10,462 nucleotides of DNA from a virus. Taxonomy: Duplodnaviria; Heunggongvirae; Uroviricota; Caudoviricetes. The translations under genes were made by a program, and so were the position numbers. The DNA lies in the IMG/VR virus record IMGVR_UViG_2606217104_000018. The stretch is one strand, 5' to 3'. Under the pieces are notes generated by a model. It was given only the letters and a program-made list of their open reading frames with translations, was not told the DNA's origin and searched no databases. Shown here in pieces: positions 1-8,400 of the stretch. Each line of letters begins with the position of its first letter. Within the stretch, counting starts at the first letter, position 1.

Positions 1-807
1 CATGGTGCGGTTCTCTATGTGGTCGGTGAAGGCGGTATAGGTGTTCCGCGTCGTGTAAAAGCCTGGGAGGTTGTGCACGATGAGCAGGTGAAAAATCTGT
101 ATCTGGTAAACCGCCCCATCTTTCCGGCTGCCCCGCTTGATGTTGATGAAATGGTTATCGCTGCCCGTCAGGTGGAGCGGGAAACGGGTAAACCTGTACG
201 CATGATTATTCTGGATACGCTGGCGCGTTGCTTTGGTGGGAATGATGAAAATGATTCCCGTGATATGGGGGCGTTTATCCGTGGTTGTGACGAACTGAAA
301 CGACGCACATGGGCCACGGTGCTGGTGGTTCACCATTCCGGCAAGGATGAGACGAAAGGCGCGCGCGGTTCCAGTGCATTTCGTGCTTCGCTGGATGCTG
401 AATACCGGATACGCAGGGAGGACGCAGGAAGCGAAGCGCTGGTTATCTCATGCACCAAAATGAAGGACGCGGAGGAACTCAAAGAAGCCGCATATGACTT
501 ACGCGTGGTGGAGCTTTTTACCGACGCTGACGGGGAGTTAATCACGTCGCTGGTGGTGGTGGATAAGCCGCGCCCTCCCGTTGAACTGGAGCGCATCGAG
601 GAGGCAGGCAACAAGACGGAAAACCATACCGCGCTATGGGGATGCATACGTTCACGCACACAGCACGGCGACAAGTGCACGATCCCGCTGTTACGTGACG
701 ATATGAAAAAGCTGGGGTATGACACAAAACACCTTAAACGATGGTTAGCCAAACTGGAAAAAGACGACGTGATCTACATTGACGGTGATGATGTAGGACC
801 ACTGTAA
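1..807 (+). CDS. Replication helicase / initiator, RepA-like RecA-fold ATPase (C-terminal part; 5' end truncated by window start)
   Basis: Frame 1 is open from position 1 (HGAVLYVVGEGG...), so the gene starts upstream. Motifs RMIILDTLARCFGG, VLVVHHSGKD and GARGSSAF resemble the Walker-B and downstream motifs of RepA/DnaB-like plasmid and satellite helicases. The C-terminal ~70 aa could be an origin-binding domain. Stop TAA at 805-807, immediately followed by the iteron array. Confidence 0.75.
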   Translation, partial: HGAVLYVVGEGGIGVPRRVKAWEVVHDEQVKNLYLVNRPIFPAAPLDVDEMVIAARQVERETGKPVRMIILDTLARCFGGNDENDSRDMGAFIRGCDELKRRTWATVLVVHHSGKDETKGARGSSAFRASLDAEYRIRREDAGSEALVISCTKMKDAEELKEAAYDLRVVELFTDADGELITSLVVVDKPRPPVELERIEEAGNKTENHTALWGCIRSRTQHGDKCTIPLLRDDMKKLGYDTKHLKRWLAKLEKDDVIYIDGDDVGPL

Positions 808-1009
808 AAAGTGGGCATTAAAAGTGGGAAAGGTGGGCGATTTAACGGAATTTTAACAAAATTACCCACTTTCCCACGTGTATATATCCCAAAAAGTGGG
901 CACTAAAAAAATACCTATGAAACAAGATGATATAAATCCCAAATTTCCCACGTTGGACGAAGTGGGAAAACGTAAAAAGTGGGCGAAAAAAGTGGGTAGA
1001 GGTGGGCAA
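808..1009. repeat. Iteron-type replication origin: about 11 copies of a GTGGG(C/A/T) core, mostly as AAAAGTGGGCA-like units, in both orientations around AT-rich stretches
   Basis: GTGGG cores at 811, 825, 834, 896, 962, 978, 992 and 1002 (+ orientation) and CCCAC at 865, 873 and 947 (inverted). AT-rich segments at 841-864, 881-887 and 904-945. Sits directly 3' of the rep gene, as in PICI/SaPI origins. Confidence 0.75.
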
Positions 1010-1261
1010 ATGACTCAAAAACACAGAGACAGAACAGAGCCAAAATATAAAGCGTTAGACATGACAGAGCACGCCTTAAAGGTGGCAATCAGAACGATAG
1101 ACCGCCACGCGGGGGAAGGATACGCGAAAGCACATCCCGAACTGATAAGCGCATTCATGACCACGACGGCGGCAAATTTTGCCACGCTGACAGAGCGGGA
1201 GATTGCGGAAGCTGAACAGGTGACAACCATCAACGTTAAAACCGGAGAGGTGGAATCATGA
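1010..1261 (+). CDS. Hypothetical small protein (83 aa), function unknown
   Basis: ATG at 1010 preceded by AGAGGTGGG (998-1006) as a Shine-Dalgarno-like sequence. The longer track ORF (878..1261, GTG start) would translate the iterons (KKWAKKVGRGGQ), so the shorter start is preferred. Stop overlaps the next start (ATGA at 1258-1261). Confidence 0.55.
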   Translation: MTQKHRDRTEPKYKALDMTEHALKVAIRTIDRHAGEGYAKAHPELISAFMTTTAANFATLTEREIAEAEQVTTINVKTGEVES

Positions 1262-1476
1262 CAGCACAGATAGCAGCTTACGGGCGGCTGGTGGAGACAG
1301 ACAAGGAACGGCATCAGGTTACGATGCGACGGCTGGAATGTTCCAGGAAGGCACAGAAGCCACCGGAGCCGCCGGATAACTTCGGAGACCTGAGAAAGGC
1401 AGTAGATCGCACTTATGCTGAAATGGGTATAGATGGTGTAAGCGATGAAATATGGCGAAATTACCAGGACAGATAA
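1258..1476 (+). CDS. Hypothetical small protein (72 aa), function unknown; translationally coupled to the preceding gene
   Basis: ATG at 1258 overlaps the upstream TGA. The ORF ends at 1476 and is followed 7 nt later by a strong intrinsic terminator. Confidence 0.55.
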   Translation: MTAQIAAYGRLVETDKERHQVTMRRLECSRKAQKPPEPPDNFGDLRKAVDRTYAEMGIDGVSDEIWRNYQDR

Positions 1477-1482
1477 TCACAC

Positions 1483-6103: not shown

Positions 6104-6460
6104 ATGGCAAGACCACCGAAAGCCCCCGCCTACCTGGATGATATCGCCGTGAAGCAGTGGCGGGAAAAATCGCGGCAGCTTGCGGAACGGGGAGACCTTA
6201 CCCCCGCCGACTGGAGTAATCTGGAACTGTATTGTGTCAACTACTCCATTTACCGGAAAGCCGTTGCAGACCTTGCGGCGCGCGGGTTCAGCATTGTTAA
6301 CAGTCAGGGCGGCGAGAGCAGAAACCCCGCATTAAGCGCAAAATCCGACGCTGAAAGAGTGATGATAAAAATGGCCTCCTTGCTCGGTTTTGACCCGATA
6401 AGCCGCCGTAAAAATCCACCGGAAACAGAAGAAGAGGACGAGCTTGACCGCCTGGAATAA
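6104..6460 (+). CDS. Terminase small subunit (P27-family-like)
   Basis: 118-aa ORF immediately upstream of and overlapping the large terminase. Acidic C-terminal tail (PETEEEDELDRLE). The sequence looks like the small P27-type TerS family; the assignment is by recognition and context. Confidence 0.75.
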   Translation: MARPPKAPAYLDDIAVKQWREKSRQLAERGDLTPADWSNLELYCVNYSIYRKAVADLAARGFSIVNSQGGESRNPALSAKSDAERVMIKMASLLGFDPISRRKNPPETEEEDELDRLE

Positions 6461-8105
6461 GTACGCAGAAGACGTAAAAACGGGCAAAATTCCGGCCTGT
6501 AAACGGCTGAAACAGGCCGTTAAACGGTACTTTTCGGACCTTGAAAGCCCCCTTTACACGTTCGATCGTGAGGTTGTGGAGCGGTTTATTGCCTTTTCCA
6601 GGGTGTGCCCGCACGTAAAAGGCGCAATGCGCGGTAGCCCCATTGAGCTGGAGCCGTGGCAGCAGTTCGCCTTTGCGTGCATCCTCGGCTTTAAGGTTAA
6701 GGCCACCGGACGGCGCAAATACACGAGCGCCTTTATCGAAGTGCCACGCAAAAATGCGAAATCCACGACCGCCGCGATTCTGGCTAACTGGTTTCTGATT
6801 ATGGAGAACGGGCAGCAGGATATTTACACCGCAGCGGTGAGCCGTGACCAGGCGCGGATCGTTTTTGATGATGCGCGTCAGATGTGCCTTTTATCCCGAC
6901 CGTTACGCAGGCGGGTGAATATTCAGGCCCACAAGGTGATGCACCCGAAAAGCAACAGCCTGTTAAAGCCGCTGGCAGCAAAAGCGGCAACCATCGAGGG
7001 AACAAACCCCAGCCTTTCCATCGTGGACGAATACCACCTACACCCCGATAACGGCGTTTATTCCGCGCTTGAGCTGGGGATGGGCGCACGTCCCGAAGGG
7101 CTGTTATTTGCCATTACTACATCGGGCAGTAACGTCGTTTCAGCCTGTAAACAGCACTATGATTATTGCTGCCAGATCCTGGACGGCGAAGAGGTCAACG
7201 ATTCAATTTTTGTGCTGATTTACGAGCTGGACGACGAAAACGAGGTTGATGATCCGGCGATGTGGATAAAGGCTAACCCTAACATCGATGTTTCCGTGGA
7301 TCGTGAAAAACTGGCCTCAACCATCCAGAAAGCGCGGGGTATTCCGTCGCAGTGGGTGGAGATGATGACAAAGCGATTTAATATCTGGTGCCAGGGGGCT
7401 ACCCCGTGGATGGGTAACGGCGCATGGGCTGAGTGTGCCGGAACGTTCACGGAGGAAGATTTACACGGCCAGGAGTGTTACGCGGGGCTGGACTTATCAT
7501 CAACCAGCGATATTTCCAGCGTGTGCTATGCCTTTCCGGTCGGTAAAACCATTATGCTGGTTTCCCGTCACTATCTGCCGGAATTTCAGCTACAGAACCC
7601 CGCCAATAAAAACCGCGCCATCTATCGCCAGTGGGCTAAAGCGGGCTGGATACGCACAACGCCAGGTGACTGCATTGATTACGACCGGATCAGAGATGAC
7701 ATCATGCAGGACGCGGAGAAATTTAATATCAGGCTGGTGGGCTTTGATACGTGGAACGCCACGCATCTCAGAACGCAATTACAGGGGGCAGGTTTTGAGG
7801 TGGAGCCGTTCCCGCAAACCTACCTCAGATTCAGTCCGGCGGCGAAATCGTTCGAAGTTTTTGTTAACCGCAGGGTGATTGTGCATCGTGGCGATCCGGT
7901 GTTGTCCTGGTCGATGAGTAACGTCGTGATGCAGAGTGACGCGAACGCCAATATCAAGCCGAACAAGAAAAAATCACCGAACAAGATAGACCCGAGCGTA
8001 GCGGCGCTGATGGCGTTTGGTACATTCCAGGCAGAGCATGAGGATTTTGCTTTTGATATAAGCGACAGCCACCGCCAGAAACTGGAAGAATTTAGCGGGG
8101 TGTAA
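6444..8105 (+). CDS. Terminase large subunit (HK97-like), apparent TTG start
   Basis: 553-aa ORF. N-terminal region YAEDVKTGKIPACKRLKQAVKRYFSDLE resembles conserved TerL N-termini, followed by ATPase and nuclease domains (e.g. LSIVDEYHLHPD). This frame opens at 6402 with no ATG or GTG before the conserved region. TTG at 6444 is preceded by GAGGA (6434-6438) and overlaps terS by 17 nt. Confidence 0.9.
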   Translation: MTAWNKYAEDVKTGKIPACKRLKQAVKRYFSDLESPLYTFDREVVERFIAFSRVCPHVKGAMRGSPIELEPWQQFAFACILGFKVKATGRRKYTSAFIEVPRKNAKSTTAAILANWFLIMENGQQDIYTAAVSRDQARIVFDDARQMCLLSRPLRRRVNIQAHKVMHPKSNSLLKPLAAKAATIEGTNPSLSIVDEYHLHPDNGVYSALELGMGARPEGLLFAITTSGSNVVSACKQHYDYCCQILDGEEVNDSIFVLIYELDDENEVDDPAMWIKANPNIDVSVDREKLASTIQKARGIPSQWVEMMTKRFNIWCQGATPWMGNGAWAECAGTFTEEDLHGQECYAGLDLSSTSDISSVCYAFPVGKTIMLVSRHYLPEFQLQNPANKNRAIYRQWAKAGWIRTTPGDCIDYDRIRDDIMQDAEKFNIRLVGFDTWNATHLRTQLQGAGFEVEPFPQTYLRFSPAAKSFEVFVNRRVIVHRGDPVLSWSMSNVVMQSDANANIKPNKKKSPNKIDPSVAALMAFGTFQAEHEDFAFDISDSHRQKLEEFSGV

Positions 8106-8118
8106 TGAGGTCAGCAGC

Positions 8119-8400
8119 ATGACAGAAGCCGAAATACTGCGATTAATCCGCCGCGTCTCTGGAATCAGCCAGCAGGCTGACGAACAGACCACGCAGCCGG
8201 ACAGCGTGACAGCCGAAAATTATGCGCGTGTTGTTGCTGAGGTGATGCGCCGTGATGGTATCCAGCTTAATGATGCGGATATGCGCGACATACGGATCCG
8301 CGTTCTGGAAATGCTGGCCTACAATCGCCGCGTTGAACTGTATCGGGAGAAGGAGAAAATCACGTACCACTGGAAGAAGCCGGAGCGGTTACGGCGGTAA
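8119..8400 (+). CDS. Hypothetical protein (93 aa) downstream of terL; candidate accessory gene
   Basis: ATG at 8119 with GAGG (8107-8110) at good Shine-Dalgarno spacing. Charged, probably helical protein (MTEAEILRLIRRVSG...RRVELYREKEKITYHWKKPERLRR). No family recognised. Confidence 0.6.
   Translation: MTEAEILRLIRRVSGISQQADEQTTQPDSVTAENYARVVAEVMRRDGIQLNDADMRDIRIRVLEMLAYNRRVELYREKEKITYHWKKPERLRR

Follow-up and report, generated by a model that had tools for sequence, protein, structure and literature searches.

A tail-less HK97-type head and packaging module next to phoQ in Escherichia coli very probably belongs to a capsid-forming phage-inducible chromosomal island allelic to EcCIEDL933

The stretch of DNA analyzed here (the window; IMG/VR record IMGVR_UViG_2606217104_000018) consists of the first 10,462 nt of the draft contig JNME01000005.1 (GCA_000700085.1), and the start of this contig falls inside a replication gene, rep. 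The DNA is that of an E. coli chromosome, and phoQ, the host gene at its right end, matched 5426 of 5426 complete E. coli genomes. Positions 1 to 8400 of the plus strand contain thirteen genes, with a coding density of 92% and a largest gap of 287 nt. Genes were called by Pfam, PHROGs and NCBIfam profile searches. They very probably form part of a capsid-forming phage-inducible chromosomal island (cf-PICI), and they were compared with EcCIEDL933, the experimentally characterized prototype of this class (bioRxiv 10.1101/2022.09.08.507074; He et al. 2025, 10.1101/2025.02.11.637232). The head, neck and packaging features are listed below, with the identity of each product to that of EcCIEDL933; features without a strand are given by coordinates alone.

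1764 to 2921, plus strand: HK97-fold major capsid protein, 385 aa (PF05065, E=2e-61; 99.7%)
2961 to 3533, plus strand: prohead serine protease, S78 (PF04586, E=2e-47; 97.9%)
3535 to 4746, plus strand: portal (PF04860, E=1.6e-90; 98.8%)
4743 to 5081, plus strand: head-closure protein, 112 aa (PF05521, phrog_25, TIGR01563; 93.8%)
5078 to 5374, plus strand: gp6-like head-tail adaptor, 98 aa (PF05135, phrog_40, TIGR01560; 100%)
5374 to 5814, plus strand: HNH endonuclease of the packaging machine (PF01844, phrog_144, E=9e-44; 96.6%)
5798 to 5980, plus strand: 60-aa open reading frame (ORF) (95% to an annotated EcCIEDL933 ORF at the same position)
5981 to 6103: putative cos region of 123 nt, in the gap between the HNH gene with the 60-aa ORF and terS
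6104 to 6460, plus strand: small terminase TerS, P27 family (PF05119, TIGR01558; 100%)
6444 to 8105, plus strand: large terminase TerL with ATPase and nuclease domains (PF03354 and PF20441, phrog_9, E=1e-178; 98.0%)

From the 3' end of perC to the last gene (window positions 1478 to 8412), the DNA was 97.1% identical to EcCIEDL933 over 6.9 kb. The ten head, packaging and right-end proteins shared by the two islands were 93.5 to 100% identical and equal in length, with no frameshift or stop, and the capsid protein differed by one substitution from that in PDB entry 9GYI (E=3e-256). In E. coli O157:H7 EDL933, EcCIEDL933 occupies the identical site between roxA and phoQ, and the two islands also agree in att (attachment site) core, gene order and ORF lengths. 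The assignment to this class is supported by the identity of the module together with the shared chromosomal site, and the window very probably represents the right-hand two thirds of a cf-PICI located between roxA and phoQ, an allelic variant of EcCIEDL933. The element is therefore already known as a near-copy of a published prototype and brings no conceptual novelty; the family was described in 2022-2023 and later solved by cryo-electron microscopy. An initial annotation made from the sequence alone had listed a capsid, a protease, a portal, two head-completion proteins, HNH, TerS and TerL, and had proposed a PICI-like satellite that builds its own capsids and borrows tails. The searches of the ORFs against Pfam and PHROGs that it suggested gave profile support for these genes and placed all of them in the same way, and the comparison with a known cf-PICI that it called for returned a capsid, a TerS and a TerL 99.7%, 100% and 98.0% identical to those of the prototype. 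The satellite reading thus found support in the match to EcCIEDL933 at the same site. Three gene calls were amended: the capsid gene starts at ATG 1764 instead of GTG 1716, the ORF placed at 878 to 1261 starts at 1010 and encodes 83 aa, and the 60-aa ORF between HNH and TerS (5798 to 5980) had been overlooked. The latter is probably "hypothetical gene 1792" of EcCIEDL933, because it takes the place of the sole hypothetical gene reported inside the EcCIEDL933 module (10.1101/2022.09.08.507074).

The criteria used for the class were those of the cfPICI model of SatelliteFinder (PMC10085698) and of Alqurainy et al. 2022. The window encodes its own capsid and prohead protease (PF05065, PF04586), a portal and neck set (PF04860, PF05135, PF05521; TIGR01560, TIGR01563) and its own HNH, TerS and TerL (PF01844, PF05119, PF03354 with PF20441). 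A replicase gene followed by an iteron origin is also present, represented by the C-terminal part of an AAA_25 RepA-type helicase and nine RGTGGG iterons; this agrees with the helicase and iteron origin that the initial annotation had placed ahead of the head module. Tail and holin components, which are forbidden in the model, were absent from the visible part of the island, its left part lying outside the window. No tail, holin or lysin family was detected among the ORFs of the window with Pfam, PHROGs or NCBIfam profiles. Because of the coding density and the small size of the gaps over positions 1 to 8400, there is no room for tail genes, as had been concluded before.

Alternatively, the module could be what remains of an HK97-like prophage after deletion of its tail and lysis genes, and not a member of a satellite lineage. 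All of its structural proteins do fall into phage families, and the head-packaging set resembles that of HK97-like cos phages, with which it shares an HK97-fold capsid with a delta domain, an S78 protease, a portal, a gp6-like adaptor, a head-closure protein and the HNH, TerS and TerL genes. However, in a complete HK97-like prophage, the head module adjoins genes for the tail, tape measure, lysis and immunity, and such genes were not found here. The element differs from HK97 in having no tail, lysis or lysogeny-switch genes and in its size (~14-15 kb versus ~40 kb), and the capsid of HK97 has a T=7 architecture, versus T=4 in the prototype EcCIEDL933. In complete genomes, the same module makes up the right half of a 15-kb roxA/phoQ island with the gene order int, alpA, small genes, DUF4222, rep, ori, 83-aa gene, ssb, perC, capsid-to-TerL module and 93-aa gene. 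At least 80% of the head-packaging module was found in 413 of 5426 complete E. coli genomes. The module occurred at several att sites, namely, roxA/phoQ, pntB-tqsA-mdtJ, rcnR-thiM, mtlD and a site near fis. That hundreds of genomes, with insertions at different att sites, have one tail-less architecture with the same order and boundaries argues against a decayed prophage, as does a left half of the PICI type (AlpA, DUF4222, rep-ori) that is common to classical PICIs. Furthermore, no record among 50,697 phage genomes shared the module at 80% DNA identity or more. The best capsid matches in phage records were a 3.8-kb fragment (S.Kent 1-2-1), the two satellite-sized records vB_KppS-Ant and Pasteurella Pmp8 (15-16.5 kb) and the 106-kb Klebsiella phage P12620-1, while the capsids of ordinary phages with genomes of 37-41 kb were at most 40% identical. 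The prototype is, moreover, a working satellite, and we consider a decayed prophage very improbable.

One of these phage records deserves a separate comment. LR881103.1 ("Escherichia phage vB_KppS-Ant", 16,548 bp, obtained from an induced lysate) is of satellite size and filed as a phage, and its architecture is cf-PICI-like, with int, AlpA, a primase, a capsid-to-TerL module and no tail genes. A coding sequence of this record annotated as "tail length tape measure protein" was rejected as a tail gene, as it had no Pfam support. The ends of the linear record are located in the HNH-terS gap. In HK97-type phages, cos lies in this same gap. The record ends at GGGGTGGGGGAGGTTTTCAGGAC, which aligned with positions 5995 to 6017 of the window, inside the putative cos region.

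A third explanation would place the element among the classical PICIs or the P4-like satellites, which remodel the capsids of their helpers, or would regard it as a domesticated gene transfer agent (GTA). Classical PICIs of the EcCICFT073 type have the same kinds of genes in their left half, namely, int, alpA, DUF4222, rep with an iteron origin, the 83-aa gene, ssb and perC (PMC6092414), and they also share the position of the 93-aa last gene and the att sites. In these islands, lambda gpE/gpD-like and Nu1-like genes replace the HK97-type module; portal, adaptor and TerL genes are missing, and the islands need helper capsids. In the window, by contrast, genes for a capsid, portal, adaptor, head-closure protein and TerL are all present, and SatelliteFinder uses these as markers to tell cfPICI from PICI (PMC10085698). 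Portal, adaptor and connector are forbidden in a classical PICI, and all three are present here, whereas genes of the Sid, Psu or delta type are missing. As for a GTA, the capsid of the Rhodobacter capsulatus GTA (PDB 6TB9), which also forms a small HK97-fold head, ranked second among the solved structures that matched the capsid protein (E=3e-46). However, this GTA packages random host DNA, neither integrates nor replicates and has its own tails, unlike a cf-PICI. The element has an att site, its own origin and its own TerS, and it occurs in only about 8% of the genomes, at varying sites. A classical PICI, a P4-like satellite or a GTA is thus extremely improbable, even more so than a decayed prophage.

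One part of the window in which the cf-PICI departs from its prototype is the replication module, whose features are as follows.

1 to 807 (ORF 19 to 807), plus strand: 3' part of rep, a RepA-family helicase, AAA_25 (PF13481, E=4e-21; phrog_2850, E=3.5e-152)
808 to 1009: replication origin with nine RGTGGG iterons (810 to 1006) in two sets around a 65% A+T spacer, by motif count
1010 to 1261, plus strand: 83-aa conserved PICI protein of unknown function (phrog_1231, E=1.9e-51)
1258 to 1476, plus strand: 72-aa in-frame ssb'-'perC fusion, with ssb codons 1-12 joined to perC codons 31-90 (PerC Pfam family, profile positions 29-89 only)

Only the C-terminal 262 aa of Rep are encoded in the window, covering positions 201 to 465 of the phrog_2850 profile; its relatives are 465 to 469 aa long. 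EcCIEDL933 instead has a 710-aa DUF927 primase-helicase, where the window has the RepA-family helicase and AAGTGGG iterons. This heptamer had 8 matches in the window, 7 of them within positions 809 to 996, versus 1.3 expected by chance, and none of 200 shuffled sequences reached 8 matches. Such an iteron layout is shared by PICI origins of Gram-negative bacteria (PMC6092414). The region 808 to 1009 is noncoding, and the match to phrog_1231 begins at residue 45 of the longer ORF (878 to 1261). An identical 83-aa protein follows rep in cf-PICIs and classical PICIs alike. The replication module of the window has a 99.3%-identical counterpart in an island that interrupts tqsA of strain 2013C-4991, and the exchange of replication modules between PICIs and cf-PICIs has already been documented (PMC10085698). 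Compared with EcCIEDL933, ssb is deleted and perC is truncated by the in-frame fusion. According to an alignment with a 99.3%-identical relative (L017), the fusion arose by a 474-nt deletion at the microhomology GCTGGTGGA, which removed ssb and the first 30 codons of perC. The same 72-aa product was indexed in 32 blocks of a public collection, beside differing neighbor genes, indicating that the fusion is a circulating variant. The remaining differences from the prototype are the absence of its 74-aa gene upstream of the capsid gene, an attR arm about 250 nt shorter, and a head-closure protein and a last 93-aa protein that are only about 94% identical.

The right end of the island is made of three features.

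8119 to 8400, plus strand: 93-aa protein of unknown function, the last gene of the island (phrog_1561, E=1.5e-55; 93.5% identical to EcCIEDL933)
8401 to 9003: attR arm, with TTGTTCCACGTTG at 8863 to 8875, direct repeats GTGTAGTTAAT/GTGTAGTCAAT at 8897 to 8919 and the core GGACATATTT at 8994 to 9003
9002 to 10462, minus strand: phoQ, the host gene that bounds the island and is not part of it (PF08918, E=2.7e-87)

The initial annotation had described the DNA after the last gene as noncoding and followed by phoQ. While phoQ does follow, the 600 nt at 8401 to 9003 are the attR arm of the island and not host DNA, because an alignment of the empty site of K-12 with the attL of complete islands and with the attR of the window put a duplicated 10-bp core at 8994 to 9003. 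This core reads GGACATATTT in the islands and GGGCATATTT in K-12. The head module thus ends at the att core, 600 nt past the last gene. The core overlaps the stop codon of phoQ (9002 to 9004) and regenerates it, and the insertion separates phoQ from roxA by about 15 kb, the two genes being only 75 nt apart in K-12. The GTGTAGTTAAT/GTGTAGTCAAT repeats recur upstream of int in attL and vary with the integrase type in other islands; they are likely arm-type sites of Int. A tRNA scan of the window found nothing, and therefore, the island is not located at a tRNA site. Only ORFs of fewer than 50 aa lie wholly within 8401 to 9001. Among these, a hydrophobic 37-aa ORF on the minus strand (8533 to 8646) was rejected as a toxin candidate since it spans the junction of differently conserved segments and had no supporting match.

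The 93-aa protein had no match in Pfam, NCBIfam, PADLOC or the sequences of PDB, and its single-sequence AlphaFold model, with three helices and a mean pLDDT (predicted local distance difference test) score of 68, was too weak for a fold search. A 93-aa product is annotated as the last gene not only in the cf-PICIs examined but also in classical PICIs lacking portal and TerL genes, and many further genomes matched the DNA of this gene without matching the remainder of the module. For these reasons, the 93-aa protein is probably not part of the head-packaging machinery. PADLOC detected no defense gene among the small ORFs, and the slot after TerL holds the 93-aa gene only.

The life cycle of a cf-PICI has been shown for EcCIEDL933, and protein identities of 93.5 to 100% suggest a similar course for the island described here. 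EcCIEDL933 is induced through alpA by the helper phages HK106 and HK446 (10.1101/2022.09.08.507074). A helper phage would switch on alpA of the island, Int would excise it at the GGACATATTT core, and replication would start at the iteron origin beside rep. From a single rightward operon, the HK97-fold capsid protein, the S78 protease and the portal would assemble into small T=4 procapsids; the capsids of EcCIEDL933 are of 42-47 nm and T=4, with island DNA only, the helper supplying tails alone (10.1101/2022.09.08.507074; 10.1101/2025.02.11.637232). HNH, TerS and TerL would then cut and package only island DNA, with a probable cos site in the gap from HNH/orf60 to terS. Each gene of the packaging module is required for the transfer of EcCIEDL933, gene 1792 partly (10.1101/2022.09.08.507074). 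Finally, the head-closure protein and the adaptor would complete the neck, and tails of a helper siphophage would join the filled heads. The tail compatibility of EcCIEDL933 is set by its adaptor and connector proteins. Since the two islands have identical adaptors, tails of the HK106 type would be expected to fit the heads of the island in the window.

The left end of the island had to be reconstructed from relatives. The core-to-core length is 15.46 kb for EcCIEDL933 and 15.05 kb for a complete related island (L001); with an L001-like left half, the island of the window would be about 14.2 kb, and a size of about 10-16 kb has been used as the satellite range for cf-PICIs. The attR core and arm repeats are present in the window, and attL lies outside it. 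Two possibilities raised by the initial annotation, tail or lysis genes upstream of rep and a size of more than 30 kb, were not borne out by the relatives. In all related loci examined, which represent six or more att sites, an integrase and a small gene in the position of alpA were annotated, a host gene bounds int, alpA and the small genes, and there were no tail or lysis genes; the complete islands are of the sizes given above. Exact-protein look-ups with the capsid, the 72-aa PerC and the 83-aa protein returned only other strains, and a look-up with the portal led to the contig that starts at window position 1.

Several points weigh against the reading of the window as an intact cf-PICI at roxA/phoQ. 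The int and alpA genes and the attL of this copy are outside the contig, so that its competence for excision and its exact size are derived from relatives. The assembly breaks off inside rep, probably because the genome has another copy of this module at a different place. Together with the case of CP057500.1, this means that the left flank need not be roxA, which is probable, not certain. In CP057500.1, the PICIs of the roxA/phoQ and pntB-mdtJ sites are found with their flanks swapped, in the arrangements roxA-PICI-mdtJ and pntB-PICI-phoQ (L027, 5,049,713 to 5,069,964; L028, 562,564 to 582,815), as if two nearly identical PICIs had recombined and thereby inverted part of the chromosome. The ssb'-'perC deletion could lower fitness, and the induction, capsid size and helper of the island of this strain are taken by analogy from the prototype alone. 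These points would fit a copy that is a cf-PICI by descent but dead or rearranged in this strain, either cut off from int and alpA or crippled by the fusion, and hence incapable of excision, replication and transfer. The start of the contig inside rep points to a repeat of the rep module, recombination of two PICIs with an exchange of flanks is exemplified by CP057500.1, the 474-nt deletion took away ssb and 30 codons of perC, and decay does occur in the family, since a diverged relative at the same site (L031) carries several frameshifts. On the other hand, the ten shared ORFs keep exactly the lengths of the prototype, with no frameshift or stop, and the attR core and the arm repeats are intact. 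The presence of the fusion in 32 blocks with varied neighbors is as expected for a variant that is still spreading, and int and alpA would stay at the left end even after an inversion between two PICIs. We therefore regard a dead copy as unlikely, although it is the alternative to be taken most seriously. As to the relative mentioned, L031 (NZ_AP022261.1, 8991 to 15274) is a cf-PICI ~80% identical over the head-packaging module and inserted at the same roxA/phoQ site. A ProQ/FinO-family gene replaces perC, only one neck gene is present, and the annotation gives frameshifts in the protease, portal and TerS genes; this island is possibly in decay.

Between perC and the capsid gene, the cf-PICI has a leader with the following features.

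1483 to 1505, plus strand: intrinsic terminator after perC, with the stem AGCCGGAGCAATCCGGCT followed by TTTTTG
1510 to 1546, plus strand: conserved block TTTTGTAAATTATTTGTTCGTGGTTGTTCCACGTTG, a candidate promoter/operator of the capsid operon by its conservation
1625 to 1763, plus strand: structured leader, with a hairpin of an 18-bp stem (1625 to 1674) and a hairpin GTCCTGG..CCAGGAC followed by T7 (1727 to 1763), by inverted repeat and RNA fold

The conserved block was nearly unchanged in L031, while the rest of the leader had diverged. The RNA fold of 1570 to 1770 had a free energy of -68.7 kcal/mol (z=-4.2). The hairpin with T7 stops exactly at the ATG of the capsid gene, where a Shine-Dalgarno sequence is not obvious, and a second terminator-like hairpin is found 3' of the capsid gene (2931 to 2952). 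Together, the hairpins at 1727 to 1763 and 2931 to 2952 suggest control of the operon by attenuation or antitermination. No match to Rfam was obtained in the window at gathering thresholds, so that neither the leader nor the att arm contains a known RNA family. No sigma-70 promoter of the capsid operon emerged from a consensus scan, a result that fits an activator-dependent promoter but proves nothing.

The last 13 nt of the conserved block (1534 to 1546) are the 13-mer TTGTTCCACGTTG, which recurs exactly in the attR arm (8863 to 8875). In complete islands with a 409-aa Int and a 62-aa AlpA, copies of TTGTTCCACGTTG phased 10 nt apart were also found upstream of int and alpA; in L001, the 13-mer and its variants are at 6864-6886, 8211-8263, 14363 and 21693. 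In a classical PICI with the same Int, the copy upstream of the capsid gene is absent. It is possible, though doubtful, that these phased TTGTTC-N4 repeats are AlpA-binding sites that tie excision, autoactivation of alpA and expression of the capsid operon to one protein; they may constitute a shared AlpA/Xis operator. AlpA of Pseudomonas aeruginosa has been described as a DNA-loaded antiterminator, and by analogy, AlpA might act in this way at the capsid leader. AlpA is the obvious candidate binder because it activates its own promoter in EcCICFT073 (PMC6092414) and because overexpressed alpA drives the reproduction of EcCIEDL933. In vB_KppS-Ant, both the repeats upstream of alpA (GTTCAT) and the block upstream of the capsid gene are changed, which fits one shared binding protein. 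However, another locus (L029) keeps the E. coli-type capsid block with a different AlpA and has no such repeats upstream of alpA. If true, the AlpA reading would provide a cis-regulatory map for the control of late genes in cf-PICIs.

The main value of the window is that of a positive control, in which a reader of the raw sequence recovered the correct biological class. It also illustrates the known exchange of replication modules between PICIs and cf-PICIs, as well as a circulating variant without ssb and with a truncated perC. By pairing their own filled capsids with the tails of various phages, cf-PICIs carry DNA across strains and even genera, and each copy of a cf-PICI is a potential vehicle of gene flow in E. 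coli.

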